From contig NIVC01001382.1 in assembly GCA_002269645.1 (NCBI GenBank), positions 87,640 to 151,639 on the forward strand: a DNA stretch of 64,000 nucleotides, given 5' to 3'. Both the position numbers and the translations under genes were made by a program. Below are positions 9,029 to 64,000 of the stretch, in pieces (within the stretch, counting starts at the first letter, position 1; each line of letters starts with the position of its first letter). Origin of the DNA: Macrostomum lignano. Lineage: Eukaryota. Below the pieces are notes generated by a model that was not told the origin of the DNA, made no database searches, and saw nothing but the letters and a program-made list of their open reading frames with translations.

Positions 9029-10015
9029 ACTCTCGATGCATAGGGCCTATCAGTTATATCCTCCTCCATGGTCTATATAGAGAAGTTTGTACACTGCTTC
9101 TATTTAATGGTTTGAAATGACACTGCGCGCGGTTGCTCTATCCCTCTGCAGCCCTGGGGGAGCTCTTTGTACGGCTCTCTCCGTGTGTGACTTACACACT
9201 GCCTCTCTGTCCCGTGCCTCCTGCTACAGGGGCTGCTTCCTCTCTTCGCGGGGTGTGTGACTCATACTACCTCTGTGTCCACGCCGCGTGCTGCGACATG
9301 CCAAGGCGGCTATCCAAACTCGTGCCTCCACGCACTCTCTGTCCCAACACACCCCTCTGACAGGGCTGCTCTCTGCCCCCCACATCCTGCTACAGGGGGC
9401 TGCTCTCTTTACAGGGCTGCGTCAGCATCGGGGTTAAAAAACCCCTTCCTACACCCCCCTACCGTATGGTGGCAAACTGCATGCACACGACATTGGTGGG
9501 AGGGGCGGGATTCCCCCTGCCGAATGTACACTCGCCGGAGGCCCACCCCGCTGGACGCCCACCCTGCTGGAGGTACACCCCGGGGGAGGTGGTACACCCC
9601 GAGGGAGCACCTTGCCGCGGTGCTAGAGGCCGGCATCAGCCCGACGGACCTTCCCAAAATCAACCGTTATACGAGTAGTTAATACGCTCGTATGTTATCA
9701 AAATCATTCTCGGCAAAAATGTTGCTTCTTCAGAATCTTTCAGCCACTACCGTCCAATTAGATCCGACTTCGAACTGACGGGAATTTCTTTTAGCAGAGG
9801 CGGGATATGAGGGGGGCTTGGGTCGCTTCGCTATGCTGGCTATGCTGGGCTGACATACCGCATGGACTCCATAGACTCCATGGTCCATAGAACCTAATAG
9901 GATCTAATACAAAGGAGGTCCATGCATGCCGCCAGTCACAGACAAAAAGTATGACGGGGTTTCAGGGTTTCAAACATGAAGCAAACAGGGGCGCCAGGGC
10001 GGCAATATACATACA

Positions 10016-19799: not shown

Positions 19800-21519
19800 C
19801 AGACACACTTCGAAGCAGCTCATCCACGCCCTGGAATCCTCGATTTCAGAATAAACGGTTCCCTTTAAAGTTCTCGAATCAACTGGAAAATTAGCCCCAA
19901 AAAGTTGGCTAGCTTCAGATTTCTCTAAGCGCTACTTTGGTCATGTTGCACGAAATTTGCAGAAGAAGGAAAGCCGCAGCAAAAACGATTCGCTTGTTAC
20001 AACCGGAGGGGACATTCTTAAACAAAGTCAACTGTTCCTCGAAGCTTACATCAGCTCCGCCTCCATGGTCGAAGTCTTCGTCTTCGCGTTCGTAGGCCTT
20101 TGTCCGGTTGTCCGGTTCCTTAGTCCGAATGTCATCAGCTCCAGAGTCCTCCGCCAGTTGACCGCCACCGTAGGTTGCAGTCTGCGATAAAACAGCGAGG
20201 CAAAAGGCAATTTAGTTTCGTGTGAGTGTTATATTATTATTATCATTTGCAGAAAAGAGGAAAATACGACAAAGAGAGAGAAAACACTTACAGAATTAGG
20301 GATGACTGGCTCCTTAGGTTCAAGGCTCGTTGCAGACTGGTCATGGCTATCTTCACAGTCTTGTGACTCCCACACTTACTCCAAAGTCGGCCGAGCACAG
20401 ACTCGTTTGTAGTGTCGCAGACGTGTTTCCTCCTTCTTCTAGATCCCACTAGATGCCACCAAGTTGTCGCAGACCTAATCGTTCCTAACTGCGATTTCAC
20501 CGTAAAGCCACCGAGTCTTTACAGACTTTCTGGCTCTTATCACTAAGCTGCCTATTTCTAGTAGTATTGGCTGCCCTAAACTATGACCTTTCTCTAATTT
20601 CACACGATTTCTTTGAAACCTTGTGATAGCGTGTAGTGCCCGAGCGGTAAGACACTGTCTAATATCCTAGTTTAGTCCGAAAGTCTAGCGTTTTCCGAGG
20701 ATCAAGGGTGTCCAGCAGTAGCTAATTCACTCCTCTAATGCCTAATCTCCTAGCGCCTAATACCTATTATTAGCCAGTACGGCTTTCTTAGAGTCTGTAC
20801 GACCTTAATTTTCTCCTTATTTTTAGACCTCTATCTTGGATCTCCACGACCTCTGGTTTCTCCCTATTCAGATCCCTAGTTCTGGGTCTCCACGACCTCT
20901 GGTTTCTCCCTATTCAGATCCCTAGTTCTGGGTCTCCACGACCTCTGGTTTCTCCCTATTCAGATCCCTAGTTCTGGGTCTCCACGACCTCTGTTTTCTC
21001 CCTATTCAGATCCCTAGTTCTGGGTCTCCACGACCTCTGGTTTCTCCCTTTTCTGATCCCTAGTTCTGGGTCTCCACGACCTCTGGTTTCTCCCTATTCT
21101 GATCCCTAGTTCTGGGTCTCCACGACCTCTGGTTTCTCCCTATTCTGATCCCTAGTCCTGTATTCGTACAAATAACTAAGACTCGCAGGTTTCAACTTAC
21201 GTTTTGGTTTGAATGTCAAACGCTGCTTCTCCGATTGAGAGCGAGCTCGCGAAGATTCGCGGAAGAGCGAGTTACTTTTATTTTTGGTAAATTGTTTCGT
21301 TTATATAGGGGATAAAACTTAACTTGATTGGTTGAAATTAATTATAAAAAAATAGTTTACGAAATTTTAACAAAGTATTAAACTCCATTGGCTGAGATTA
21401 TTTAAAACAAAACAATTTAGGGATTTAAACAAGGAAATTCGCTGATTGGCTAAGTAAAATAGCTCATTAAACCCGCTTAAAACTACTATTAGTAAGAATA
21501 AAAGATCGACCCTATTACA
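19800..21519 (-). mobile_element. Truncated Gypsy-type LTR element (element C): LTR ~20465-21519, PBS, leader, gag stub
   Basis: Starts TGTAATAGGG at 21519. CCAAT boxes and TATA (~21300). Ends ...GCGACA followed by ACT-TGGTGGCATCTAGTGGGAT (tRNA-Leu-like PBS). The degenerate TVYSEIEDSRAWMSCFE gag-like motif lies at ~19810-19860. Shares a conserved block with the LTRs at 46.7 and 55.4 kb. Confidence 0.65.
20843..21156. repeat. 46-bp tandem repeat, ~7 copies, inside LTR C
   Basis: GATCCCTAGTTCTGGGTCTCCACGACCTCTGGTTTCTCCCTATTCA at 20871, 20917, 20963, 21009, 21055, 21101. Confidence 0.95.
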
Positions 21520-27682: not shown

Positions 27683-30533
27683 GTGAAGATTCTCGAAGCA
27701 AACAGAGGGCATCCCATCCGTTGCGAGCTCGATACGGGAGCTGGAGTGTCGATCTTGTCAGAAGCCTTGTGGAACCAACTTGGTCGCCCAACTCTAAGAC
27801 CTTCGGACGTAAAGCTGGGAGGCTATGCGAGTGACCATACGCTTCATGTATTGGGAAGGTATGAAGCAACTGTTGATATCGAAGGCAAATTTCGGTCAAT
27901 CAATTTGAAGTTGTGAAAGTGAACAAGAGCTACGCTCTTCTTGAAAGGGACGTGCCTTGTGTCCATCTGGAATCAAGTCAGGCTGTGGGAGAGGCGGCAC
28001 CTTGTGCATCTATGAAAGCGCATCTAGAGTTAAAGGCGGGCGCGACACCGAAGCACATAAAGGCAAGGCCTGCCTTCTGCCCAACGTGAAGCTGTTCGAG
28101 AGAGATAGATCGATTGCTCCAGGAGGGAATCATAGAGCCTGTACGTTTCGCAGAGTGGGCATCGCCTATTGTGGTCGTGCCGAAACAACGTGGAGGAATT
28201 CGGCTCTGCGTGGATTACAAAAGGACTCTAAACCCGCAATTGGTACCTGACAGTTACCTGATGCCGACTCCGGAAGAGGCGTTTTCAGTAGTATCTAGCT
28301 GCAAGCGATACACACTGCTCGACTTGGAGAAAGCCTACAATCAAATCGAGCTGGATGCCGGATCAAAGCCGCTAACAGTGATGTCAACACCATTTGGGAA
28401 TTACCAATATAACAGACTAGTGTTCGGGATAAAACGGCGCCGTCCATTTTCCAAAGATATATCTCAGAAGTAATTCAGGGAATCAATGAATCTATAGCCT
28501 ACATAGATGATGTGTTGATCGGTGGAAAGGATGAGGACGAGCTGTTATCAAGAGAGGAGGAGGTTCTGCAGCGGCTGGAAGCAGAGGGACTGCGTGTAAA
28601 TAAGGAGAAGTGCCAGCGGAATCAAAGCAGGATTCGGTTTTTGGGCCACATACTCGACAACGGCAACATTTACCCAGACAAAGAAAAAGTTAGTGCAATT
28701 AAAGACATGGAAGCGCCTAAAAACCTGGCTGAGCTAGAATCATTCCTGGGCTTAGTGGCATTTTGCTCGCGGTTCATTCAGAATTTAGGTGACCTGACTG
28801 CTCCGCTGATGCAGCTGAAGCAAAAAAATGTACCCTTCGAGTGGGGACCGAAACAGAGCAAGGCGCTGGAAAACCCCAAAGCTTCAATATCTAGAGATGC
28901 GCAGCTAACGGCCTATGATCCAGATCGGCCTATGGAGCTCGAGTTCGATGCTTCGCAGAAGGCCCTGGGAGGAATTCTGAGCCAGGAGGGTCGTCCAGTG
29001 CTCTACATCAGCAAAATATTGTCGAAGGCTGAGCGAAATTACTCGCAGATAGAACGTGAGGCGTTGGCCATAGTTTGGGGTGTTCGCAGATGCCATCGAT
29101 TCTTGTGTGGCAGGAAGTTTACGCTGGTTACCGACCACAAACCGCTGGTTTACATATTTGCCGTGGACAGCGAGCTACCTGCTCGTGTTTCAGTGAGATT
29201 GCAGCTTTGGTCGATTTTGCTTACGGCGTATGACTATGAAATCAAATATCGAAACACCAAGGCGATGTCATCAGATGCGTTGTCCAGACTAGTATCGCAG
29301 CATAAGAGTAAAGCAACTTTGGAGATTGGAAATGTAAATGCTTTCTGCACGCTGTTGCCAACTAAATTGATGATAAAAGCAACTCGAGAATGCAACGAGA
29401 TGCAGCGCTTGTTGAGTGCTATCAGATCAGGAAGTTTCAAGTCACCGAAGCTACGAGCCTTCAAGCCGGTCCGAGATGAGCTCGAGACAAGACGGTCTAA
29501 TTCTTCGAGGTCATAGAGTAGTGATACCTCGATCACTGCGTTGTAAGACGATCGGAGTGGTTCACCAAGCACACTTAGGAATAGTCAAATCTAAATCTCT
29601 GGCAAGAACTGAGTTCTGGTGGCCAGCGATGGACAAAGACTTGGAGAAAATCATTAGCAAGTGCTGGGTATGCCGATCAGCCAAACCACAACATAGAGTT
29701 TTTCGGACGCCCTGGCCGCAGGCTGCTGGGCCATGGCAGCGAGTTCAGAGAGTTCATGCAGATTTTGCAGGACCAATTCAGAAACAGTACATCTTGGTGC
29801 TGGTAGACGCATACACTGGTTACCCAGAGATTTACATCGTTAGTCGACCACAGTAATAGAACGTCTCCGTCGAACGTTTTTCCAGTTCGGAGTACCACAA
29901 ACTTTGGTTACCGACAACGGGCCGAGCTTTATGAGTTCTGAATTGAACCAGTGGCTCACGGAAATCGACTGCGAGCATCTTACTACGCCAGCATATCATC
30001 CGCAAAGCAACGGTGCGGCTGAACGGCTGGTAAGAACTGTGAAGGAGACAATAGAAGCAAACGGGTTCAGTCAGAAGACGATTGACCGTTTTCTTTTGTT
30101 TTATCGAGCATCGGCTGGCAGAAACGGTGTTTCACCTGCAGAGCAACTGTTTGCGAGAAGGATTCGGGTGCCGTTCACTGCTAGGCAGGTCGGTCTTGAG
30201 GAGCAGGTGATTTACAAGAACTTCCGAGATGCTGCGGTTCCGGCAAGAATTGTGCTGCAGCTAGGAAGGAGCATGGCGCTCATCAAGACTGAGAAACAGA
30301 AGCCAGTCTACCGGAGGGCTCATCTGGATCGACTGAGGCCATGCACTGACTCTGATCAACAGCCTGGAGGGCAAACGGATCAGACGGCAGAGCAGTCCGA
30401 TATCGACCAGCTGCCCAAGTCCGGGGAAGAGGGAGAGCCGGAGGACAAAGAGCATCTCCCATCGGAGGATCAAGGCCAGCCACGGCGCAGCTACCGACTG
30501 GCGCTAAAGCCACGGATTGACTATAGATTCTGA
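27683..30533 (+). pseudogene. pol: Pol (protease, RT, RNase H, integrase) with several frameshifts
   Basis: LDTGAGVS; WASPIVVVPK, RLCVDY, LDLEKAYNQI, YIDD; DAS, YSQIEREALA; HQAHLG, HADFAGP, VTDNG, PQSNGAAER. Confidence 0.93.
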
Positions 30534-44932: not shown

Positions 44933-46439
44933 TCAGCTTCGCATGGAGTGCAGTAGTGGGAAAGCGACTTGCTTATCTTTTAAAGGGATAAGCATTGCCT
45001 TGCAGAAAATATCTTCTTTTCGTAATAAACTGTAGCCGCTGGAAAGCTTACTCACAACGGATATCATATTGGTGTCAAAAGAGTTCACCGGAGTTACATA
45101 AAGAGGCTCTGCTTGCCTAAAACTACAAACATTCAGGTAGCAGGAATTATCAACAGTGGAAAGTATGTGAAAAACTCGACACACGAGCCCAGTTCGAGTC
45201 ATAAAATAGCAATCAGGCTTAGAAACCGATAGAAATGTTGACTTTAAAGGTAAGTCGAGGCGAGAAAAAGCTGTGGAAACTCGAACAGGCAGAATAGTGT
45301 TAGGCAGAGGCATGGGGCTGGACAGAGTAAACTGGGCTAATTGTACTTTTTCGACATGCTTTTTAAGAAAACCGAGCGTAACATCTCTCTCAGAGACTCG
45401 CTTTACAACTTGCTGAAGAGCCATGAAGGGACCACGGCAAAAGGCAGCAATGAAACGTTGAAAATTTTCGCCCCAAAAGCAGCTAAACTGCTCCAAGGGG
45501 CCAAATCGGCGCACATCAGCAGGGATATGGATGAGGGTGTGCAAATTGTACACTATGAATTCTTGCCCCCAAAGGCGTTGACAGCAACGAAGAATCCATT
45601 TCGCAAGGCTTTCGGCATAGTCGCAGTGCATGCTGCTCGTGATCGGATTCGAAAGCAGAAAGGAAAAAACGTGTAAGGATACAAACAGACTGTACATCGT
45701 GTCTGAAACAAGGCCTTGCAGGACAACAGGAGCCAAATACAGAATAAAAAGTCGAAACTCGACTGCCTTCCACTGCCCTAAAACATCCAATGATCGAGGC
45801 TTACGCGGGAAGTCATGGGTTATGCCTTGCGCCACAACTTCTAGTGCGCTGTTAATTTCACGCTTTGAGGCAGATGCAACACGATGAGGCACAACAGCTG
45901 AGCCTAGGTTGTTTAAGCACTTATGAACAACTCCTTCGTACAGTAGGTGCATTGGGTCTACAGGAAACGTTGAAATCATATCGATTGGCAATGCACAAAA
46001 TAAGCTAGCAGATGTAACGTGCTGTTTGTACAAATGATTTTGAGGACATTCGGGTGAACTAGCAAAACGGAAATCAGCATCAGTTCTAATTGGTGCATCT
46101 GTGTCGCAGAAAACAACTCTTCCATGCACATACTGACCTCGCACGGTGCACTTGTCACAAGCAGAATAGCCAGTGCAGTTTTTCGTACCTATTACAAAGT
46201 GCCTTGCAGGAGCATCACACATAACCATCTCTAGAACAAATGGGATGGTAACACCGGAATTAATATAGCCATTAGAGAGTAAGTCACTGAGTTCAGAGAT
46301 GCTATCCGACAAAAAATCAGAGGCAGACAAAGGCTTTTTTGAGCCACAATAAATTCCAATTACAAAATCAGAATGCGAGATTCCTTTCACTCGACCCCAT
46401 ATGGGCCACATTGTGGTATTGCAACTCTTATAAACCTTA
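44933..46439 (-). CDS. EnSpm/CACTA-type transposase, C-terminal ~490 aa intact, 5' end cut by an LTR (copy 3)
   Basis: WPI, GIYCG..KP, CDAPAR..K..TGYSACDKC, PVDPMHLLYEG, RKPRSL, WKAVEFRLF, YNLHTLIH, FGPL..FSCF.GEN in one frame. LTR begins at 46440. Confidence 0.9.
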
Positions 46440-47309
46440 TGTTGTAGGTGTCTTTACTATTATTGTATTCTTATTCCACTATGCCACCAAGTTGTTGCAG
46501 GCTTAAACTCTCTCTAGAAATTATCCTACCGCAGGCACCAAGTTGTTGCAGGGCTATACACTTCCTAATTTATAATTACGCTACGGAATCAAGTTGTTGT
46601 AACTTAAGATAGTTATTACTCCATAAAATTGCTTAGTCAATTGCTGCTTCTTAGAAAATATCAAGTCTAGAATTCTAATCTAAGGACTCCTTGAATCTAT
46701 GCAAGTCGCCCTGGTAGCAGTGTCGAGCGGCAAACACTGGTCTACATGTAGTTATGAATCTCACTACTATTATTATTACTACTATTAATTCCCTATATTT
46801 AGTTGCGGGCTCCCTGTGAAGGAGTTGCCCGACTCGTCAACCGTCTATTTCTGGCTTCTCACAGCTTTCCTGGCCTCTTACGGCTTTTTCTGGCTTCTTA
46901 CAGTTTTTCTTGGCCTCTTACGGCTTTTCTGGCTTCTTACAGTTTTTCTTGGCCTCTTACGGCTTTTCTGGCTTCTTACAGCTTTTCTTGGCCTCTTACG
47001 GCTTTTCTGGCTTCTTACAGCTTTCTCTCCTGTCTTGCTTTCCAGTGACTAAGACAACACGTTTTGCTTTTCTTGACCAAATCGAGGAAACGGCGGGCGA
47101 AGTTTCTAAAGCCCGAAAACGCTTGTATTTATAGGTTTACTGAGGGGGAGGACGGGTGCGCGGGACGTGGTTAAACAAAATATCAATTTAAACAAAATAA
47201 TTATTCTTCGCTATAACAAAATAATTCCGTAACTAAGAAATTTGGCGTAAATTCGAAATGGTATACGTATAAAAATATTGGGCCTGCCTCAACTGGCTTC
47301 CCTTCTACA
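46440..47309 (-). repeat. 3' LTR of element A (outer U3 boundary uncertain, could extend to ~47650)
   Basis: Ends ...CTACAACA at 46440. TATAAAT at 47127-47133. 18/36-bp repeats at ~46850-47025. Candidate start TGTAGAAGGG at 47309, with no obvious PPT. Confidence 0.75.
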
Positions 47310-47661
47310 TATTTATGAATAAACTCGTGAGTGAATAAATGTGTAGTTAAAGTGCAAGAGGGACTTTTAATCACACAACGTAGGCACTAAATAAAATTGG
47401 CTGACACTAAAACATTAAAACAGCACACAACATGGTAATATCAGTAATATAGTTAGTGGAAGAATTGAGCAAGGTTGGCTATTATTAAAAAGGGCATGAA
47501 GTTGAGCACACAAAAAGATGTTTGGCTAAATATAAAGTTGCACAAAGTTGAGCACACAAAAATTTTGGCTAAATAGGTATGCATGCAAAATTAGTGAAGG
47601 CTAAATAGGTATGCATGCAATGCGAAAAAATAACAGTACATGACAGTTCAATTATAGTCAC

Positions 47662-49068
47662 CTAATTATCGTTCAGATTAAATTCGTCCGGCAAAAGGTC
47701 GCGTAGAGGCCATCCGACTTGCTCGGCGAGCCACTTAATCTCGATGATAAGCAGCGTGCGAAAGTACGGCTGGCCAGCCGCATTCAGGTCATGAAGTACG
47801 TAGTTCACAGCGCGGCGCCAAGCCGCGACAGCTTGCTCAGGCGTGAACTCTTGGCGAAGCACAATGCAGGCTGGCCGGACCTGGGCCCGCTGTGGCAGCG
47901 GCCGGTCCAACCGCAAGTGGCCGATTCGCATTAGATATTCCTTCAGGGCAGCAATCAGTCGCTTCATTCTTGCCTGCTGTTCTGGCGACAAACCGTCCAT
48001 GATGGCGCTGAAGTCGGCGCCCATCGCAGCAAGCCTTTGGATGTCTTGGTTGCCGGGGGCAAACAAATAACTTGCAGCTGCACGGCAGGTTGACGCCTGT
48101 GGTGGCACTGCAGTCTGCGGTGGCGGCTGCTGATGCGACGGCGGTGGCTGCTGATGATGCTGAGACGGCGGTGGCTGCTGATGATGCTGAGACGGCGGTG
48201 GCTGCTGATGATGCTGAGACGGCGGTGGCTGCTGATGATGCTGAGACGGCGGTGGCTGCTGATGAGGCTGAGACGGCGGTGGCTGCTGATGATGCTGAGA
48301 CGGCGGTGGCTGCTGATGGTGCCGCGGCGGAGACTGGTGACGGCGCTGCGGCGGCGACTGGTGGCGGTGCCGCGGCGGAGACTGGTGACGGCGCTGCGGC
48401 GGCGACTGGTGGCGGTGCCGCGGCGGAGACTGGTGGCGGCGCTGCGGCGGCGACTGCTGACGCTGCTGTGGCGGCGGCCGCGGAGCCAGCCTGCGGTGCA
48501 CTGGCAGCTGCTGTCGGACTTCTGCTCGCGACGCCACACGCCGAGGCTGCGACCGCTGAGCCGGCCGCTGCTGCTGAGGCGGGGCAGCTAACATCAGTGT
48601 GGGCCGCGCGCCAGCCGGGTGCCTCTGCATAACCGTCGGCTTCACCACCACGGACTGCACCGACTTCACTCTAACGAGCTCCTGTCGTGCTGCCGGATCC
48701 TGGGATACTGGCAGCCTTGACGGGGCCGGCCTCTTCGCTTGTGTACCCTGATCCGTTTCTGCAGCAGGTCGCTTTGGCTTGGTGGAGGGCTCCGGTGGCT
48801 GCGAGGGCCCGGGCAGGTCAGCTGGCTGACGCTCCCGTAATGGCTCTGACGGCGGTGCCAGCGTCGGAGCAGGCTGCTGCGTAGCAGGCGGCTGCGACGG
48901 AGCCTCAGCTAGCTGTTCTTGCTCGTTTTGCTGCGCTGAACGCTCTGGCTCTGGTTGCTCAGTTTGCTCATCTTGCTGCATGGGCCAAGGCCCTTCAAGC
49001 TCTTTTAATAGATCGTCAAATTCACTACCGTCTGCTAAAATATTTAACTCTTCGTTTTCTTTATCCAT
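47662..49068 (-). CDS. Intact 468-aa accessory ORF in the env position: acidic N-terminus, Pro/Gln/His/Arg repeats, helical C-terminal domain
   Basis: ATG-initiated and uninterrupted, same strand as pol. Contains (HQSPPQRR/HQSPPRHR)n and (QPPPSQHHQ)n repeats. No signal peptide or TM segment. Confidence 0.8.
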   Translation of the reverse strand: MDKENEELNILADGSEFDDLLKELEGPWPMQQDEQTEQPEPERSAQQNEQEQLAEAPSQPPATQQPAPTLAPPSEPLRERQPADLPGPSQPPEPSTKPKRPAAETDQGTQAKRPAPSRLPVSQDPAARQELVRVKSVQSVVVKPTVMQRHPAGARPTLMLAAPPQQQRPAQRSQPRRVASRAEVRQQLPVHRRLAPRPPPQQRQQSPPQRRHQSPPRHRHQSPPQRRHQSPPRHRHQSPPQRRHQSPPRHHQQPPPSQHHQQPPPSQPHQQPPPSQHHQQPPPSQHHQQPPPSQHHQQPPPSQHHQQPPPSHQQPPPQTAVPPQASTCRAAASYLFAPGNQDIQRLAAMGADFSAIMDGLSPEQQARMKRLIAALKEYLMRIGHLRLDRPLPQRAQVRPACIVLRQEFTPEQAVAAWRRAVNYVLHDLNAAGQPYFRTLLIIEIKWLAEQVGWPLRDLLPDEFNLNDN

Positions 49069-49159
49069 AACGGATTTGCTCTTGACTGCTTCTTTATTGC
49101 TACTTAATTGCTGCCTTATTGCTCTGTTGAGGATGAGGAACTGATTGCGTCAGGGATCT

Positions 49160-49360
49160 CGCTTATATAGGTTTGCAAACATTCCACTTTGGGGGGTATC
49201 ATGTTTCAAGCTTATTCAAACAAACAATTATTTGTTTAAATGGCAGGTCTTCTCTCATTGGCTGATGATTCTTCCTTATTGGCTGTCGGCCTCTTCGCCT
49301 CTCTCCTCCTATCCACGGCCTCGAAATCCCTTCACTTCTACGCCTCCTCTCATTGGCTCT
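49160..49360 (-). promoter_or_regulatory. Internal promoter candidate for the accessory ORF
   Basis: Minus-strand CCTATATAAG at ~49162-49171 and three AGCCAAT boxes at ~49257-49357, between the integrase end and ATG 49068. Confidence 0.5.
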
Positions 49361-49394: not shown

Positions 49395-52300
49395 TCAGAA
49401 ACTGAGATTGCCCAACAACGACAGCACAGTGGCCAGCCGCTTCAAGCAACAATAGCACTTGGGGGGCCTGACCTGCCTGCGTGTATTGTATCTCCTCTCT
49501 GAATTAGTTTCCTCGTGCTCATGCTCAATCTCATTGTTCTCTCTGGCATCTTCTGCATTGCTCATTATTCCTTCTTCTTCTACTGCACTCTCTGACTCTT
49601 GGCTCTCATCTTCGCTCTCAGTTGCTGGTTCCGTTTCGGACTCTCTCATTTGGCATTGCCATTGCACTCGCTCATCCTCAGATTCAGTGTCAGACTCAGA
49701 CTCTTCACTAATCACTACCTCCTTATGCTTCCTCGGCGGGTGGCTTCCCTTAGCTTTAGGTTCCCTCCTTGACTGATTTTTCTTCCGGTGCCTCTCCTGC
49801 TGGCTTCCCTTAATTGGCAATTCTGCGGTTGAATTAGGAACTAATGTTAAATTGTCCCTATGCACTAATAATTTATTCCCTACAAGCTCACCATCCTCTT
49901 CTTTCTGCACTCTAAACACTACGTCTGAGATCTGTTCGATCACTCTATAGGCGGCTCTCTTCTTTCTGTGAAATTTGTTAGACTCCTCATTGTCTAACTG
50001 CGGGTTATTTAATAACGCTAAACTCCCTACTGGCACTTCCTTAGGCTGTTTGGCTGTTTCAGTAATATTCTTTCTATTGTCAGCAACTTTCTCGAGCTTA
50101 TCTCTCACGATTTTTGTGGCAATTTCTAGCCTTTCGGCATGATCTGCGACATAGGCTGGATAGCCTGAGTACTGATTTGGCTGGCGAATTTGACTGTCTA
50201 TTGGCAAAACCGGCTCCCTTCCGAATAACAGGAAATGGGATGAATGGCCCGTGGTCTGGTTCACACTAGTGCGCACTGCAACAAGCGCTGCGGGAATCAT
50301 TAGATCCCAATTGCTATGATCCTTCTTAATTAAACAAGTAATGATAGATTTCACTTGCTTGTTAAACCTCTCTACCAAGCCGTTACTTTGGGCATGGTAC
50401 GGGGTGGTACAAGTGTGTTTAACATTGTACAAATCGCATAACGCTTTGAACTGTCTACTTGTGAAGGTTTTCCCATTGTCAGTATGTATCCAATGGCATT
50501 GACCATATTCACTGAAAATTCGCTCCTGTAGGATCTTAATCACTGTGTCAGACTTCTGATTACGGATTGGGAACGCGAATGGGTAGCGAGTAGTGCTATC
50601 AACTACAGTCAATACATAACGATGGCCTCTCCTGCTTTCTTCGAAATGGGGCCTATAATATCGATATGCAGGCGGTGAAATGCCTCGTTGACTGGGAATG
50701 ACTGCACTGGAGCCTGAATAGGGCATCCTCTTTTGCTTTCCAAACACGGAATACACTCAGATATATATTTCTCAATGGCTGTCACTAAGCCAGGTCTCCG
50801 AAATCTCTCTCTAACTCTTTGTACTGTCTTATCACGGCCCAAGTGTCCTGCTAGTGGGCTATCGTGCAGATCAGCCAGCACTAATTTGTCTAGCGACACT
50901 GGCAATACAATTTTGCTTACTCCTTCTTCTTCAATGACTATCATATCGCTTTCAACTTTCATTTTTTTCGTAAAATTTGCTTAACTGCTTTCATTTTGAG
51001 CTAATGCTATTTCGCTGGGCATTAACAATCTGCTCTCTCTGCAGGGCGTTGGGTAGGAATTCAACTAATAATGCTCCAAACTTCAGCGTACCATACTCCT
51101 CACTGTGCTCAGATTGTGGGGTGACTCTGCTCGATTGCGTAACGCAGGAGCTCTGTGTTTTCACACTATCAATCCTTACACTCTTCTCACCAGAGACTAT
51201 TTCATTCCTCTGTGGCTCAGGGGGCTTGGTCTCTCCTTTTAGCTCAGTGGGGGGCTGGGTCAGATTGCTTATGCTGTCCTTAGCCTTCCCATTCTGGTTG
51301 TGCTGTGCACACACGCGTTCGCTGGGGATATACATCTCTTTATCTGCTCTTATCTCTTGGTTCACTTCGGCTCTTACGCCTTTGCTGCTTATCTCTTGAC
51401 TCTTTGTCTCGGCTTCCGCCTTCTCATTGGCTTTACACTCTGGATGGGCAACCTCGGCTGGCCTTCGGGACAGGCTATCGGCATTTAAATGTTTCGCGCC
51501 ACTCCTATGCTCGATTTCAAATTGAAACTCGTTGAGGCGCTCAATCCATCTGCCTAAAATGCCCTGGGCTTCAGTCTGCCTTAATAACCAAAGTATAGCC
51601 TTATGGTCGGTCCTAGCTAAGAATTTCCTATTAGATAGAAGCGGACATGCCTCATGGCATCTACTAGAGCTAGCAAATCCTTTCGAGTTATGGGATAGCG
51701 TTTCTCTGACTCCTTCATAGCGCGGCCAAAATAGGCGATTGGTCTCTCGACACCGTCTGATTGGATTTGTCCCAAACAGGCACCTATGCGTCCATCACTG
51801 GCGTCTACATCGAGAACCATCTTCACCTTCTCATCGTCTATAAACTCAGGGTACGCTAGTACTTCAGTACTCATCATACGGGTTTTCAAAAGCTCAAACG
51901 CTTCATCATGCTTTGCTGTCCATTTTGCTTGGAAGTTTTGAACTCCCTTACGAGTCAATTGAAATAATGGGTGCGCCACTTCGGCGTAATTTTTCACCAA
52001 TCTACTATAGTAATTGCACAGTCCTAAAAAGCTTCTCAATTCCTTCACTTCCTTTGGCTTTGGCCAAGTTCTGATGGCCTCAATCTTGGCTTCGTCGGTG
52101 CGAATGCCATCTCTGCCTATTACATGGCCTAGATACTTGAGCTCAGAGTGAAATAAATTGCACTTCTTTGCTCTCAACTTTAAGCCTGCGGTGATCAGTC
52201 TCTGAAACACCTCTCTTAAACGAGACAAATGCTCCTCAAATTGCTTCGAATAAGTTACTATATCGTCAATATACGACATTGCAAACTTATGCTGGATTCC

Positions 52301-54034
52301 GGCTAGCACTAAGTTTATCAGTCTTTGAAATGTACCGGGCGCGTTGGATAACCCTTGCGCCATAACCTGGTACTCAAACTGTCCTCGCGTCAGAGTAGAA
52401 AACGCGGTCATGAACTTATGCTTTTCCTTTATAGGCACTTGCCAATAACCTGAGTTAAGATCTAAACTACTAAAGTATTTACTGCCAGTTAAGTTGGAGA
52501 AAGTTTCTTGAATATTGGGGAGGGGATAGGGAAAATAGTTAACTCTAGAGTTGAACACTCGGAAATCACTCACTATTCGGATGGTGCCATCCTTCTTTGG
52601 CACAATGACTAATGGGGTAGAATAAGTAGAATAGCAGGGGCGGATGAGATTCTTAGCTAGCATATCATCTAGCTGGGCGTCGACTTGCTTTTGGAGATGA
52701 GGGGGGATGCGGCGGGTAGGAATTCTAACAGGGGTCTCATCCTTCAGGGAAATTTCATGAGTGACTAGATGAGTCAGCCCCATGTCTAAGTCAGTCTGGG
52801 AGAATGCTTCTCTGTTCTCTCTCACGAGATCAAGTACTGTTTTTCGCTGACTCTCAGTTAAATCGGCACCAATACTAATTTCGCTCACCCAAGCATCTTC
52901 AGTTGCCTGAGCTTGATTGACACGTCCGGCGGGTTGTGCGGCGTCTTCGGCAGTTGTCTGCGGAACTGACTCGGCGATGGAGGGCGATGCTGACCAGTAG
53001 ACGAGGTCCTTGTTTCTCATGGGCTTGGCTAGGCCAATCAATGTCGACTTCGGCAGTCTCACGTCGACAGGGTGTCGATTCACAATCTCCACGATGGCAT
53101 TGCCGTCTCTCATGGTGACCAATGTCGGAACCATCTCCACTGTCAATTCCTTGGCTCTCACGCCTTCTCCAATCACTTCTACTGTCATAGGAGTGCCATG
53201 ATTGGGCTCATGGTCTTTCGCTAGCCTAATGGGAACTCTCAATGCACTATTAGCAGGTACTATAGCCTTTTCTCGAGTATAAACTCGGCAAATTCTAACT
53301 GTTTGGCGGGTGTACTGCATGGGCACACAGAGGCCTCTCTTTAGTACAAGCATGCCATTGTCTTAATCAATGCTCTTACAGTGGGCAAGGAAGAAGTCCA
53401 TGCCAAGAATGTTATCACATTCATAGCTGCACAGCAAAAAGCTGGTATCAATTTGGGTATCTCCGAATGTCACAGACACACTAGATTCTCCTTCTAGCTG
53501 CACTGAGGAACCATCAAATGTGGTAACTCTCTTATTGGTTTCTCGGATTTGCTCTGTCTTGATCACCTTGGACCATACTGACTTGCTCAAGAAGCAGTTT
53601 CCGGCTCCAGAGTCAAGTAAGAAGTCAATTTCTTGACCTTCATTGTCTCCAAGGCCAATTGCTTCACTACTTTTCTCGCTTATCAATTCAACTTTTGCTT
53701 TCTCAGCTGCTTTCTTAGCTTCACGATATTTCGCTTTGCGAGATTTCCTCGCCTTTTGCTTTGCACTTGCTGGCTTAGTCACTGGGGACTTTGTCAGCTC
53801 GGATGCTGATGCTTTCGCATCTGACTCACTCGGCTCTGACGCCAATAACTCAAACATATTAGGAGATAGCGCGATGGGGGACGCGCTGTTTACAGGTGCA
53901 TTACGCATTGGTGCTCTATACATGGGTGCATTACGCATGGGTGCATTACGCATTGGTGCATTACGCATTTGTGCATTACGCATTGAATTCCTGGAAACGG
54001 GACTTGTCGCCATTCTCCAGGGAGTGGGTTGCAA
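49395..54034 (-). pseudogene. pol: Pol of element A (PR, dUTPase-like linker, RT, RNase H, integrase), several frameshifts and stops
   Basis: FLLDSGAG; YSTPLVIVPKKDG, LDLNSGYWQV, YIDD; DVDASD, TDHKA, NADSLSRRP; HDSPLAGHLG, IDIIGP, TDNG, SNGLVER. Confidence 0.93.
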
Positions 54035-54119
54035 ACGGGTTTACGGGGGAAATGAGAGGCCTGAGTTTCGCTTTGGGATTTCCTAGAGGGACGTGGCCTC
54101 GAATACCGGCCCTCGAATC

Positions 54120-54939
54120 CTAGTTTCCCTGATAGAAATTGCGGGCAGGGAATCGACTCTGGTTGCTAAATCCAGGTCGCACTACGTTCTGTGTTGGCTT
54201 CCACGGAATCTGCCTTCTTATCTGCTGCTGCATCAGCGGGCGAATCTGTGGCTGGAACGCATGAACTCTTGGCTGATAGTATTGCGGCCTAGTCTGAGTA
54301 ACTGGCGGCTGCTGCTTTTCAGCTTGCAATTCCTGAATTAGCTTCTTTTGCTCTTCGAGCTCAGATTTCTGCTGCTTAACTAGCTTTTCTAGCTTGCTCA
54401 TCTCATCATCTTCGTCTCTCACAACTCTGACACAATTCTTATGCGACATATGCCAGGCTGCTTCTATTCTCCTAAGCATGCGTCTGGCCTCCTGCAGGCT
54501 ACTGGGCTGAGCAAAAATGAGTTTCTCCCGAGTATCGGAGGAAATTCTTACTCCCTTAATAAATTGCTCGATTACTTCCTCTTCACGCTGTTCTGCGTTC
54601 AAACGCCCTAGCTGCTAGTTCGATCAGAGCATCGGCGAACACGTCGGTTGCCTCCTTTCTACCCTGCATCCTACCTCTGAACTCCTCTCTGTACTCGGAT
54701 GAACTACCAATCCGGCCAAATCTTTCTATTAATCTCTCCTTAAACTCCTCATACGTCAAATCCTCAGGTAAATTTAAATCGATGTACTGCTGCAAACGCA
54801 GTTGATAGGTCTAGGTTAGCTAAAAGTTCAGTCTTTCTGTGCTCCTGATTCCTTCCTGATCACACCTTTGGTCGAATGCAGTCAACCAAATTCGCACATC
54901 CTGACTAGGAGTGTACTTTTGGATCTTTACATGCCTCAT
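54120..54939 (-). pseudogene. gag: Gag of element A (frameshifted; no CCHC knuckle seen)
   Basis: MRHVKIQKY...DVRIWLTAFD; TYEEFKERLIERFG; R.Q...E....F...L..LA..AF; EQFIKG; Q-rich tail. Confidence 0.8.
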
Positions 54940-54987
54940 AGGCCCTAATTCTAGCCTGTTCCTGCTAATAATTAAGTGCTGCCATTT

Positions 54988-55107
54988 GTACTCTCACGTT
55001 ATTCGCTGTACTCTCACGTTATTTGCTGTACTCTCACGTTATTCGCTGTACTCTCACGTTATTCGCTGTACTCTCACGTTATTCGCTGTACTCTCACGTT
55101 ATTCGCT
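54988..55107. repeat. 20-bp tandem repeat, 6 copies, in the element A leader
   Basis: GTACTCTCACGTTATTCGCT at 54988, 55008, 55028, 55048, 55068, 55088. Confidence 0.95.
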
Positions 55108-55145
55108 GTCTTTAGCGGTCGCCTTAGTCGGATTCCAATCCCTTT

Positions 55146-55157
55146 CCGCTGCCACCA
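55146..55157 (-). promoter_or_regulatory. Primer-binding site of element A, tRNA-Leu type
   Basis: Minus-strand TGGTGGCAGCGG is complementary to the ...CCGCTGCCACCA 3' end of metazoan tRNA-Leu(AAG/TAG) (sequence recalled). Confidence 0.75.
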
Positions 55158-55160
55158 AGT

Positions 55161-55920
55161 TGTTCTAGGGGAAACTCCTGTCCTTTCTAATAATGTCTCA
55201 CCGTGCCACCAAGTTGTTGTAGGGGATATTTCTGTCTGTTAAAATCCCACTGCTGTTACCAAGTTGTGGTAATTTTAGAATATCTATCACTCTAGTATAC
55301 TACTTCAATCATTTATTATTTCTAGGAAAAACACTAAATACGGAATCTTAGTCTAAGGACTCCTTGAAATTATGCAAGTAGCCCTGGTAGCAGTGTCGAG
55401 CGGCAAACACTGATCTAATTCATTAAATACTGTCTAATTTCTACTTCTAATTTCCAGTCATAGAGCGGCTACCCTGGGATGGAGTTGCCCAACTAAGCGA
55501 CCGTTTGTTTGCTCCTTTCTTACTGGCTTCTCACAGCTTATTCTTCTGGCTTCTTACAGCCCTTCCTTCTGGCTTCTTTCAGCCTTTCTCTCTTGGCTTC
55601 TTACAGTTTTTCTCTCCTTTCTGCTTTCCAAGTGAACTGAGCCAACACGAATTGCTTCTTAAGACCGAATCGGAGAAACGGCGGGCAAAGGAAAAACTGC
55701 CCGAAATCGCTTGTATTTATAGGATAGCAAGGGGAGGATGGGTGCGCGGGTCGGTGTATAACAAAATTCTTTTTATCAGTTTAAACAAAATATACTTTCC
55801 CATATAGAAATCTACCATTTAAACAAAACATCCCATTTAAACAAACTTCGTATTCAAGCGTGATTTGGCGTGAATTTAAAATAGAATATACGTGAACATT
55901 TCAGCGAGCCTTCCTCATTT
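55161..55920 (-). repeat. 5' LTR of element A (boundary uncertain)
   Basis: Collinear blocks with 46440-47300, including an identical 32-nt GCCCTGGTAGCAGTGTCGAGCGGCAAACACTG and TATAAAT at 55715-55721. Confidence 0.75.
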
Positions 55921-55930
55921 ATATAATTTA

Positions 55931-58420
55931 TTACCTAAGGAAACATGGTAATAAGTTTTTTATAACAAATAAAAACAATATTATTACTATTTTTGTTACT
56001 AAAATAATTATTGACATTTGTTCAACTGTTATCAAACTTAAATTTTCATTAAGTTCTGAACGACTGTCCTTCTCAATCAGATCGATTGACATTTCATGTA
56101 GCTTTGTGCGACCGAGATCACTATCATCCTGTGAGATCTGGCTTAAAAAGTAATTAAGCATGCGCAAAGTTAGGGCTAATTGATTTGGAGTCAGACTGGA
56201 CTGGTCGAGTCGGAACTGTTTCACAAGCCATTCTGCTGTACCTTTTTCTGGTGGTGGTAATCTTGAAAGCTTACTGTTGAGGAGATTGCAGTTGTCTATG
56301 GAAAAATCCTTCTCAGACAAAGCAGTTGGTACTACAACTTCTCCATGACCGAGCTCTTGAAAAGATGCAATCTCTTGGTCACGCTCAATCCTAGCTGGTT
56401 GATCGCTACTATTTAGCAATCGGACTAACACGTGATTCGTCGGGCTGACTCTATCCACTGACCTAGCTACAAAAAATTCTGAGTCTGTATTGAAAAGTTT
56501 AGAGGAGACTGTGCCACTCAGGTTTGGCACAGTGTCAATCACTCGACTCGGCACTAGGGTTTCCGAGTGAGGTGGTAGCTCAGAGGTACAAGCAGCCAAT
56601 ACACGGCGTATGCGAAACACCCCCTTATCGCCCTCGATCACAGGCACTGCTCCACCGGCCACGAGTACCTGGCCACAGGTGAAATCCAGCAGCACCTGGA
56701 AACCACGGAGGAAATCAATACCTAAGAGCGATTCAGCAGTGGATTCTTCGGTCACAAGGAAAACGTGATGTTTTTTAATCTTGCCTAGTTCAACTTCGCA
56801 GCGCAAAGAGCCTAAAATCTGGGTGGTGGACCCGTTGAAAGCCGTCGCCTTTGCGTCTTTGTGCGCTGGCGAAAAGATGTTGTTGATCGGATCGGCTTCA
56901 ACCAGTCTCTCCATGGCTTGCTTCCCCATCACGCTGGCGTTTGCCCCCGAGTCAAGGCAAGCCATGACTTGGTTGTCCCCGATTCGCAACTGGACAAAGA
57001 AGCTGGAATCCACCGCAGGCTCATCGGAACTAGTTTGGCCTAAATGCGTCTGATTGATCGATGGAATTGGCCTTACCCCACAAGCCTGATCGCGCTTCTT
57101 GCCCGAGTCAATTTTCCGATGGAATTGGACTCTTGTGCCTACGAGTTGGTGCTGGTCAGCCGAACGGTTCAAGGATTCAGACAGCTCACCACGGTGAAAG
57201 AAGAGCTGGTCGGGAAGTTGTTCTGATTGAATGAACCCGAAGTTCCCTTTCCAGGAAACAATTGAACCAACCTCCGACATATGCTGGGCCTGATTATTTG
57301 GAGGATGACTCTTAGCAGCGGTCTGGTGAGCTATTGGAGGTGATGGTGTGATGGGACAGTCGGCAATGAAATGGTCCTCACCACCGCACCTGTAGCATTT
57401 CCTTGATCTGGACACCGCTGTACCAAATTGCTGAGTTGCCCCGTGATTTGGCGGTTGTTTATTCTTGTGCTTGTTATGTGGCTTGTGTTGGTTTGAATTT
57501 TGGATTGACTTGTTAGATGGTTGTGGTTGATTGACAGCAACAGGCTTGGAAACTCCAGCCTGGTTCTGGAGTCGAAGGAGTCTCTCTAGCTCTTCTACTC
57601 TTGCCTCCAGAGACGCCTTCTCGGTTTCAAGGACACGGATATTCGCAGAGGAGTTTGGAGCGGGTTGCAGAAGTTGCTGAATACCAACGATCCTTTTGGC
57701 CTTCTTAACCAACTCGGCAGACGGGACAGTCTTAGCCTTTGCCCCACTAGACTCATCACTCACCCCTGCATCACTGCTCCAAAGCAAGAGTTTTTCTGCG
57801 AGCACCTTATCCCGAATGCCATGGCACAGCCTCGCTCGTAATAAAGGTTCAGCTTCAGTAGATGAGAGGTCTGCTAACCGGGCATAAGATGCTAACCTAT
57901 CGTAAAACTCGGCAATCGATTCGGTGCTGTTCTGGTGAGCGGCAACTAGTTCCATATAACTTTTCTCCCTAACGTTAGAGTCAGTGTAACGCGCTCTCAT
58001 AGACTTCAGTGCCTCTTCACAGGTCTGGTCCGTAAGATTGTTATTTAGAAAGTACTCCTGGCATTCTGGTGCCAGAAGGGACAGCAGGACTGAAGTCTGT
58101 TGAAAGTGAGGAACCCTATGAGCTTCAATGTAGGCATTGAACTGAGCTTCCCAGGCATCAAACTTCGTGGTGCAAGTGAACAACGGTGGCGGCCGAAGCT
58201 TAATGCATGTAGCTGTTTCCTTCTGTTGACTCTGGTAGAACGATTGAGAACGGGACTCTCTTGAGAATTGATTTTCTAACAACCGGTGCAGTGCAGCAAT
58301 GGTACTAGCAAGAAGTGGCTCTGAGTCTGTAGTGTTGCTTGACACAAACTTTCTTTCCTGAGCAGAAGCGGCTGGATTTGGAGAGCCAGCAGTGGCACCC
58401 CTGTCCTCGCGGTCACTCAT
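55931..58420 (-). CDS. gag: Gag-Pro of element B with CCHC knuckle, cold-shock domain, aspartic protease and dUTPase-like domain
   Basis: Likely ATG at 58420 (MSDREDRG). PPLF...FDAWEAQF; CYRCGGEDHFIADC (57356-57397); GSIVSWKGNFGFI...LFFH...VGTRVQF...A.GVR (57071-57280); CLDSGANAS; LLGIDFL. The last ~40 aa are read-through into flanking DNA. Confidence 0.9.
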   Translation of the reverse strand: MSDREDRGATAGSPNPAASAQERKFVSSNTTDSEPLLASTIAALHRLLENQFSRESRSQSFYQSQQKETATCIKLRPPPLFTCTTKFDAWEAQFNAYIEAHRVPHFQQTSVLLSLLAPECQEYFLNNNLTDQTCEEALKSMRARYTDSNVREKSYMELVAAHQNSTESIAEFYDRLASYARLADLSSTEAEPLLRARLCHGIRDKVLAEKLLLWSSDAGVSDESSGAKAKTVPSAELVKKAKRIVGIQQLLQPAPNSSANIRVLETEKASLEARVEELERLLRLQNQAGVSKPVAVNQPQPSNKSIQNSNQHKPHNKHKNKQPPNHGATQQFGTAVSRSRKCYRCGGEDHFIADCPITPSPPIAHQTAAKSHPPNNQAQHMSEVGSIVSWKGNFGFIQSEQLPDQLFFHRGELSESLNRSADQHQLVGTRVQFHRKIDSGKKRDQACGVRPIPSINQTHLGQTSSDEPAVDSSFFVQLRIGDNQVMACLDSGANASVMGKQAMERLVEADPINNIFSPAHKDAKATAFNGSTTQILGSLRCEVELGKIKKHHVFLVTEESTAESLLGIDFLRGFQVLLDFTCGQVLVAGGAVPVIEGDKGVFRIRRVLAACTSELPPHSETLVPSRVIDTVPNLSGTVSSKLFNTDSEFFVARSVDRVSPTNHVLVRLLNSSDQPARIERDQEIASFQELGHGEVVVPTALSEKDFSIDNCNLLNSKLSRLPPPEKGTAEWLVKQFRLDQSSLTPNQLALTLRMLNYFLSQISQDDSDLGRTKLHEMSIDLIEKDSRSELNENLSLITVEQMSIIILVTKIVIILFLFVIKNLLPCFLR

Positions 58421-58779
58421 GATCGGCTCGGCAACGAAGAGAAGGCAGCAAGAAAGAGAGAGAAGCGGAAAACGAGAGAAGAACAAAAGCAAAAGCACAC
58501 AGTGTCTGGCAGGACCTAATGCCCAACCTAAAGAATCTAAACTAAAATCACGCAAACCTAATGCTAACCTGCCAGACAAGAGCCCTAAAAGACACACACA
58601 GAGGGATTCATACCGGTTTACGAAACGTGATTGCGGGCTTAGCTGGTATCGTCGCTCGGACAGTCGTAGATGGCCTCTGGCGGATGCAGACTGCGTCTCG
58701 GCCGATGTGCAGATCGCTCCGGCCGATGGAGATCGTCTTTGGGTCACTTGCAGATAGCAGATCGCCTCAGCTCACCGCG

Positions 58780-59122: not shown

Positions 59123-59541
59123 AATTTATGTGACGAATAAAGGCAGGAAGACGTGCAGTTTGTGTAGCGGTTAAATTTGATAATCTAGAGCCAGTAGCCG
59201 ACTTCCCTTAGCGTAAATTGCAGATTCAGATTTGGTATGTTGAATTGAAGGTTAGGTTTTGATTGGTAGCTGCTTAATTTTAGTGCGACTAAAGCAATTG
59301 AATGCGACGGCTAAGGGGCCCGCGAGAAGCGGAGCGAAAACTCAGGAGCGCAGGGGAGAGCGGCGACTGGATGCAAGCGTATATTTAATTGGTAAGGTAA
59401 ACAGATAACAAACAACAGCGACCCTAATCCAAAACCCAGACAAACCCCCCACGCGGCGCGCAATGTACATGTACAAATCAATCGATAAATATATCATACA
59501 AGAATAACATACGTCAGTACATGTACATAGGTAGAACTACT

Positions 59542-62347: not shown

Positions 62348-63803
62348 TTACTCAAATTTGCAACCATTGAATGAACAGTTGTGGAAACTGTACCTGACCG
62401 ACGGATTGTCATGACTGATGCCGGTGATCTGCACGGAAGACGACACAGGTACTGGCACCGGTGAACTCTCACGCAATGGAGTCGCAACAGCTTGTGAAGA
62501 ACCATTCAAATCAAGTGCCATAGAAACAGCCTCACTGGTAGACTGCAGCGAGCGATCACGGCGCTTGGACAGGTAACGGCGAGTTGTCCTCTCAGAAACC
62601 TGACCGGTTATCGACATGATGTCAGCCAGGTTGTACCCAGCAGCCTCTAGATCAGCAATCCTGCTCACTCTACAACAGAAATAAAGTATTGCATAGAAAA
62701 TATGCAACTGGTTTAAAGCAATATGAAGAAAAAGGCTTACCGAATGCAATGATTCGTGTACATCTTGGACAAACCGGCCTTCTCGCTCAAGTTTCGCATG
62801 AAACGCAGGAAGTAGTTCTCCCCGCGATTCTGCTTTGTTGAGAACATAGGCTGTCCATTGGAATCCGTGTTGGATAGTGGACGCGGAACAGATGGTTGTC
62901 CTTGGTTGTTGGAGGTAGCAGTTGTAGATATCTCCTCACTTTGGCCGTGTCGTAGATCCGAGCTTGTTTGTTGTCCGGCCTGGCCTTCGCCTTCACAGGA
63001 TCGGCTGACTTATTCTTCGTTGGCAGAGCAGGAAGACAGTAGTACTCCTTGCCGTCAGAATCCGTGTGCAATTCAAGCGAGTCCCTTTGTCTCAGGAACT
63101 TCAGATGCTCCTGGCCACGCTCTCCAAAGGAGTAAAGAACATAGAACAGAAATTTAGCCTGCTCGATTTCAGCCGTAGTCCCTTCAAAGTAGCACCGCAA
63201 CTTCTGCATGTCGCCTTCTTCAATTGGTTCATACTGCCTGGTGCAGCCACCATCTCGATGGAAATCACGAACCTTGACACGCAGCATCTCGTTGCAGGAA
63301 TTGAATTCCTCACCACCGATTATATCGACAGGCAGCTTCAGAACCATGCGTAGGAAACGCTGAATTCCAGCCCGGATACAGATGAGAGAGGCCGGCGAGT
63401 AGAACGAGCCATCCTGTTTCTTCAGCTTGAAGTAGAAGTACCGAAGATATTGGCTCAATGTAGGATTGTTGACATGCTGAATGTTGCGCAGATTCTCCCC
63501 TTCCAGGAAGTCTCGAAAACGTTGGCCATGCTGGTACATCTGCTTCCGAGTATCCTCAGGCAGACTCTCGATCTCGATTCTGTCCATCTCGGAAACGTCT
63601 ATCTTTTCATCTCCATCGATCATTGGCAGCCCAGTATCAGCTGGACCATTTTGGACATACTTCAGGAACGCATCGAAATCTTCGTCGTGCCGATCAACGG
63701 CAGAGGATTCCGAGAGGAAGTTCAGTTCATCCTGCGTGATGTTGCCGAGGTCCTCACACGGGAGGTTACCCCAATTAATATAATGTATTATCGGGTCGCT
63801 CAT
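62348..63803 (-). pseudogene. Crypton (CryptonA / DUF3504-like) tyrosine recombinase; one frameshift and one intron
   Basis: YSPASL...AGIQRFL; FGERGQE; TKN; a 1-nt shift near 62885 restores F.RP...YTNHCIR | intron 62670-62740 | VSRI...GY...MSITGQ.S...RRY; ends in F.NC.F. Confidence 0.88.
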
Positions 63804-64000
63804 GATGGACAGAAAACTCTTGAATCAACAGGTTTGGACAGACTACTTACTGCCTAGGAATCCCTCACACAAACCCCTTCACCCCCACTGAAAGTTTTGC
63901 CATAGACATTTCAACCCTCCATTCAATCAATAGGATTGTCATTGCCATGAACTCTCCACGCCTTTTGGCTTCGTGCCATAGACGTTTGTGCCTCCTCCTT

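Follow-up and report, generated by a model that had tools for sequence, protein, structure and literature searches.

Serial LTR ends and tRNA-Leu-type PBSs inside three divergent LTRs on a Macrostomum lignano contig

A broken Ty3/Gypsy-like element and three arrays

The window, i.e., the whole stretch of 64,000 nucleotides (64 kb) analysed here, carries on its minus strand a broken retroelement whose parts are listed in Table 1. The order of its pol domains is the one that defines Ty3/Gypsy elements. The element RT has 18 PDB matches, led by Ty3 RT (E 1e-64), an assignment made from PDB matches and not from a tree; the closest named relative among the 120 matches listed is a Macrostomum lignano protein with 58% identity. 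Two near-identical LTRs with a shared TSD, a further hallmark of Ty3/Gypsy, are not seen in this broken element: for the upstream LTR, neither a clean TG start nor a shared TSD was found, and there is no 5' start of the form TAAG followed by TG. Since the two LTRs are only 66-72% alike and a shared TSD was not detected, the element copy is best regarded as a chimera or as rearranged. They are too different for sister LTRs, and thus no intact copy with matched arrays is seen. Right behind the 5' LTR, at 55157, lies a PBS with 12 perfect nucleotides to the Leu-AAG-type PBS, the reference being the bee tRNA and not that of the host. The window holds neither the other side of the empty site nor any tRNA gene, no Rfam match reached the gathering score, and the downstream LTR has no AATAAA or ATTAAA downstream of its TATA box.

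Table 1. Features of the element, its LTRs and their arrays (positions refer to the window)
Feature	Positions	Strand	Remarks
Downstream LTR	46440..47330	-	TATA-like box 47126-47135; 5' boundary approximate only
Extra ORF in element	47662..49149	-	495 aa, Q/P-rich (Q/P/H-repeat), no Pfam family
pol	49395..54040	-	several reading-frame pieces; order protease, RT, RNase H, integrase (Pfam, ORF pieces)
gag-like region	54120..54985	-	assigned by position only; no Pfam match
Upstream LTR	55161..55900	-	66% (blastn) to 72% (ungapped columns) identity to downstream LTR
Insertion site	44933..46439	-	transposase-like ORF (by eye, no Pfam match); downstream LTR inserted in its 5' part
Array, downstream LTR	46440..46603	-	four att ends, three ACT+PBS, three spacers (21, 21, 23 nt)
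att ends, downstream array	46595, 46544, 46493, 46440	-	positions of terminal A
PBS D1	46574..46591	-	innermost, most decayed; 6/18 ungapped to Leu-type 18-mer
PBS D2	46523..46540	-	15/18 to Leu-type 18-mer
PBS D3	46472..46489	-	nt 1-8 perfect, then 1-nt gap; gapped score 12.5
Terminal att	46440..46448	-	integration end here; PBS-like sequence after it in other copies
Longest perfect match between upstream and downstream LTR	46708..46739	-	32 nt: 7-bp hairpin, then stretch complementary to ACT + PBS start (anti-PBS candidate)
Array, upstream LTR	55140..55273	-	atts 55265, 55215, 55161, each with ACT+PBS; periods 50, 54
Solo LTR, other family	20413..21519	-	TG...CA, 4-bp TSD CTAC; atts 20517 (decayed), 20465, 20413; periods 52, 52

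The sequence-only reading had pointed to TGTTG motifs at 46440, 46493, 46544 and 46595. All four are there, spaced by 53, 51 and 51 nt; on the minus strand each belongs to an LTR-end motif ending in CA, and the one at 46440 adjoins the flank. According to the same reading, the inner ends run ACAACA-ACT and continue into PBS-like sequence. The ACT and the three PBS-like strings quoted were recovered as described, whereas two of the ends read GCAACA. Four TGTTG at 48-56 nt spacing, observed once, occur in none of 100 Markov-simulated 64-kb windows, and the same holds for three CAAGTTG (observed 2, simulated 0/100). With at most two mismatches, the 13-mer core has 7 matches in the window as compared with a shuffle mean of 2.0 and a maximum of 6, and 7/7 are located inside the three LTR arrays. 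No extra decayed units were detected upstream of the downstream and upstream arrays (p 0.08-0.64). One profile match at 27777 was rejected as a further unit, being situated in apparent protease coding sequence.

The array is present in three divergent LTRs, with the same module and a period of 50-54 nt in 7/7 intervals. In the upstream LTR the last PBS points to the internal region, and the spacers differ from those of the downstream array. In the solo LTR a clear inner unit lies at a distance of 52 nt from the end, and another 52 nt inwards there is a decayed one; the latter ranks 14th of approximately 128,000 sites when scored with a profile made only from the other two arrays. Between the solo LTR and the other two LTRs, blastn aligns the array only. 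Two of the three LTRs stop at the last att and leave PBSs inside.

Several observations were made in the surroundings. Three CCAAT boxes, a TATA box and an Inr-like TCAGTT, all seen by eye at 49140-49340 (minus strand), precede the 495-aa ORF behind the integrase, which seems to have a candidate promoter of its own. Ordinary tandem repeats near the arrays (46848-47025 with a 39 nt period, 54987-55109 with 20, 20791-21206 with 46) each sit in an LTR or leader, upstream or downstream of the array. In the neighbouring Gypsy-like element a PBS-like site occurs only once, near 59125, and no array was recognised by eye; the gag-protease ORF of this element (55931-58771, minus strand) is broken off at the upstream LTR and shows behind the zinc knuckle a weak cold-shock domain match (E 1e-4, below the cut-off). 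At 9466-9520 (plus strand), two TGGTGG starts are separated by about 27 nt, and the second one follows CA-T and resembles a tRNA complement; they possibly represent a further LTR end with a doubled PBS. A two-exon ORF at 62348-63824 (minus strand) has by eye the look of a tyrosine recombinase (Crypton-like), its first piece being without Pfam match.

As for relatives outside the organism, no locus was recovered from viral contigs with the RT. The array pattern matched 61 metagenome and 3 viral loci; none of these 64 has a tblastn match to up to 6 retroelement proteins, and the viral ones are, by eye, not PBS arrays.

Cores, spacers and PBSs

Units of the downstream and upstream arrays are denoted by D and U. 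For their comparison a 20-nt core was defined, comprising the 9 nt of the att, ACT and the first 8 PBS nucleotides. Outer units of the upstream and downstream arrays agree in 16-19 of these 20 positions, and the att 9-10-mer is family-specific and common to the outer units of each LTR. The spacers are 20-24 nt long across arrays. Three out of 36 spacer pairs reach p<0.05, namely U1/U2 (0.002), the orthologous pair D0/U0 (0.016) and D1/S0 (0.04), and none of the 36 passes a Bonferroni correction. A similarity along the whole unit, as is typical of minisatellites, is not observed: 33/36 pairs are unrelated, all D1-D3 pairs included (p 0.17-0.47). This bears out the earlier proposal of att-end plus PBS modules inside the LTR rather than a generic tandem repeat. 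The relatedness of the U1 and U2 spacers (one of 36 pairs) suggests a duplication. No donor was found within the 64-kb window for any spacer.

Polarised decay, with the innermost unit being the oldest, had been proposed as a check, and the scores are compatible with it: the innermost core is the lowest-scoring one in 3/3 arrays (20.4, 21.4 and 11.3 versus 27-30, in-sample scores), which is expected about 1 in 18 times by chance, the D and U arrays being related and hence not independent. The length constraint on the units is modest, since 57-65% of ordinary 52-nt LTR windows, too, differ by no more than 2 nt in length between the upstream and downstream LTR.

The assignment of the PBSs to tRNA-Leu was supported and can be specified as Leu-AAG type, the reference pairing being printed for the bee tRNA and not for that of the host (PMC10886601). 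Without gaps, the PBSs match the Leu 18-mer of the sequence-only reading at 6 to 15 of 18 positions; nucleotides 1-8, which pair with the tRNA 3' end, show no difference in 4 of the 7 clear units, and several PBSs differ from the 18-mer at positions 8-12. In the supplement of PMC10886601, annotated Gypsy Leu-AAG and Helenus PBSs diverge after 9-12 nt, and thus the gapped inner PBSs need not be dead. A slicer-site lesion pattern in the PBSs was dropped as a candidate, since ordinary Gypsy PBSs share it. Phage tRNAs were of no help in assigning the isotype (the Leu-type pattern matched 6 loci, of which 3 were Tyr, 2 Met and 1 no call); one phage tRNA-Leu(CAA) has the D2 complement at its 3' end, but this is no guide to the host. 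The antisense mimicry of a tRNA end follows from any PBS.

Other copies in public sequencing runs

Logan contigs of 4 of the 24 runs listed were placed on positions 46250-47750, and one of these runs may be the source of the window DNA. Flank contigs end at 46439 in 4/4 runs, and the flank continues into other sequence without the LTR in 2/4; the end at 46440 is a real integration end. A joint 46545->46442 was found in 3/4 runs from three studies, with 30-43 letters on the short side, and a skip 46484->46536 in 1/4. Two further runs contribute loose ends that match: those at 46536 (runs X1 and X3) and at 46552 (X1) continue with the PBS and spacer of unit 3. Read from joints and loose ends, the unit order is D1-D3-D2, as opposed to D1-D2-D3 in the window. 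Whole units are thus arranged in another order in other copies, and the fixed order among copies that characterises a polarised memory array is not observed. Joints that skip 107, 153 and 159 nt possibly represent copies with fewer units; they were not counted, since the letters in between are not known.

Four contigs of run X1 continue past 46440, and their consensus ends in an ACT-TGG junction (agreement 0.59); in one run, what comes after the att at 46440 is in most cases another PBS-like site. The att that is terminal in the window is therefore PBS-flanked elsewhere. Other loose ends show further spacer types beside Leu-type PBS ends. Among the loose ends listed there is no copy that ends at an inner att with plain flank, so support for inner units as ends is indirect; likewise, no piece listed spans the whole array or confirms the order seen in the window.

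These data bear on the earlier suggestion that U5 has grown by repeated uptake of a PBS plus att and so keeps a record of priming sites. Its modules and the strongest decay in the innermost unit (3/3) hold. As a strict record it is not supported, because unit 3 precedes unit 2 elsewhere and U1 and U2 have related spacers. The succession of unit 3 and unit 2 in contigs of 3/4 runs argues for a shuffled cassette instead of a strict chronological record.

Origin and meaning of the arrays

The right end of an LTR is fixed by the place of tRNA priming, which is established knowledge and is outlined in PMC10886601. A PBS inside the LTR thus means that a more distal PBS primed, and the att at 46440, an end here and a PBS-flanked junction elsewhere, fits priming at such a more distal PBS. 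On balance, and judging from sequence, we favour the arrays as live ones in which whichever PBS primes would set the LTR end, and out-of-register template switching would add, drop and reorder units. A Ty3/Gypsy clade would accordingly carry a cassette array of family att end, ACT, Leu-type PBS and 20-24 nt spacer at a period of about 52 nt. Following the standard scheme of reverse transcription, priming at a distal unit would copy the upstream units into both LTRs. The 13-17 nt cores common to the units may act as register slips for template switches or for second-strand transfer, and such out-of-register events would duplicate, delete and reorder units; one duplication and one deletion could convert D1-D2-D3 into D1-D3-D2. 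Any unused unit would neither be refreshed from the tRNA nor tested by integrase and would decay, the innermost first. The likely benefit would be redundancy, i.e., spare priming sites and integration ends.

We count in favour of live arrays the 7/7 intervals, the family-specific att, the order D1-D3-D2, the X1 contigs past 46440 and the perfect PBS starts. The modest length constraint, the lack of a per-unit hairpin beyond chance and LTRs too different for sisters count against them. The shuffling of units could equally be due to unequal exchange at the DNA level.

The arrays may instead be a neutral relic of an old tandem duplication of the U5-end/PBS junction, where only the last PBS primes and the inner units drift. 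Related U1/U2 spacers, decayed inner cores and the weakness of length conservation alone would all suit this, as would the partial PBS duplication tolerated in 14% of HIV-1 isolates (PMC3185550). We nevertheless think it unlikely: drift does not readily leave outer cores nearly identical between upstream and downstream arrays next to unrelated spacers, nor the same period in an LTR whose body no longer aligns.

Still less probable is a polarised, CRISPR-like record to which a new att, PBS and spacer are added distally only, so that order equals age. The lowest-scoring innermost cores, the mostly unrelated spacers and the further spacer types at loose ends are what such a record would leave. 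It is already weakened by D2 and D3 occurring in both orders (window versus run contigs), by the lack of a spacer donor in the window and by the apparent duplication of U1/U2.

Little credence is given to the extra PBSs being decoys or tuning sites for 3'-tRNA fragments instead of priming sites. Such fragments repress LTR elements via the PBS without strict seed rules (bioRxiv 10.64898/2026.01.22.698655), and the differences at positions 8-12 could be read in this way; decoys, however, do not need att and ACT before every PBS, extra cis sites should add repression, and similar central differences occur in ordinary Gypsy PBSs (PMC10886601 supplement).

Very unlikely, finally, is a central role of the anti-PBS at 46709-46720, shutting one PBS as a structural switch or Tf1-like self-primer while extra PBSs keep one free: it is part of the longest block of perfect conservation, no other stretch forms a better duplex with D3, U2 or U3 (7, 8 and 3 of 200 shuffles as good), and it pairs with a PBS in both predicted folds; however, its pairing with D1, D2 and U1 is not significant (18, 20 and 30 of 200), another partner is better in the solo LTR (194 of 200), and whole-region folding is ordinary (z 0.38, -0.02 and -1.57).

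Two further candidate structures were considered. A hairpin in each unit between the 3' half of the PBS and the following att seemed promising on inspection and was rejected (Stouffer z -0.66; cognate versus swapped p 0.37). The 7-bp hairpin of Table 1 is predicted for each of the three LTRs (46708-46739, 55381-55412 and about 20634-20655, minus strand), the solo LTR with its non-aligning body included. CCGCUC is contained in its 8-nt loop, which is complementary to the central part of the Leu PBS; the hairpin alone is not significant.

No natural att+PBS array inside an LTR was found in the literature searched, subscription journals being outside its coverage. A 'multi-PBS' report on insect Gypsy elements may exist; it was not found in that literature and would lower the novelty. 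Among known cases, cultured HIV-1 mutants with multiple PBSs and the partial duplication of MAL come closest. HIV-1 with an altered PBS yielded multiple-PBS viruses in culture, which likewise have several PBSs per genome and arose in primer switching; they are transient forms of an engineered virus and not a natural multi-family trait, and the available portion of the source describes no fixed period or repeated att (PMC1084362). The 23-nt MAL-type duplication is a natural PBS duplication, yet it is partial, lies downstream of the PBS, lacks an att and, in the available portion of its description, is never in the LTR (PMC3185550). Drosophila gypsy with its 5' and 3' PBS, Ty3 with a bipartite and Ty1 with a multipartite PBS also bind the tRNA at several sites of one genome, of which one is close to the 3' end; their extra sites bind other parts of the tRNA, as far as the source text covers them (PMC1635307), whereas here every copy matches the CCA end and comes with an att of its own. 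Helenus TRIMs of animals have a 4-bp TSD like the solo LTR and PBSs resembling those of Gypsy (PMC10886601). Canonical Ty3/Gypsy (Metaviridae) elements with a tRNA-Leu-AAG primer share the TG...CA LTR followed by a few nucleotides and the PBS, and Ty3 provides the best PDB match to the RT; here, in contrast, the LTR itself contains 3-4 copies of the junction, about 52 nt apart and in variable unit order. Self-priming of the Tf1 type, with a PBS complementary to the 5' end of the transcript, does not apply, as the PBS matches tRNA-Leu-AAG and the complementary stretch lies about 400 nt behind the TATA box.

From live arrays a bolder, rather doubtful extension can be drawn: a whole animal Gypsy clade might, under selection, keep att+PBS modules that are interchangeable and recombine as a cassette with a fixed pitch of 52 nt. 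One module would be picked in each round, making LTR length, integration end and primer site variable, and a shared module pool would be swapped and reordered, possibly to escape PBS mutation or tRF repression.

LTR end and PBS are usually treated as single fixed landmarks. If the arrays are live, LTR length would be reset by primer choice, and genomic copies would record priming and strand-transfer events, providing a natural read-out of primer-site change and rescue as well as of how priming is traded off against tRF silencing. In practice, the calling of LTR boundaries and dating by LTRs would also be confused by such arrays.
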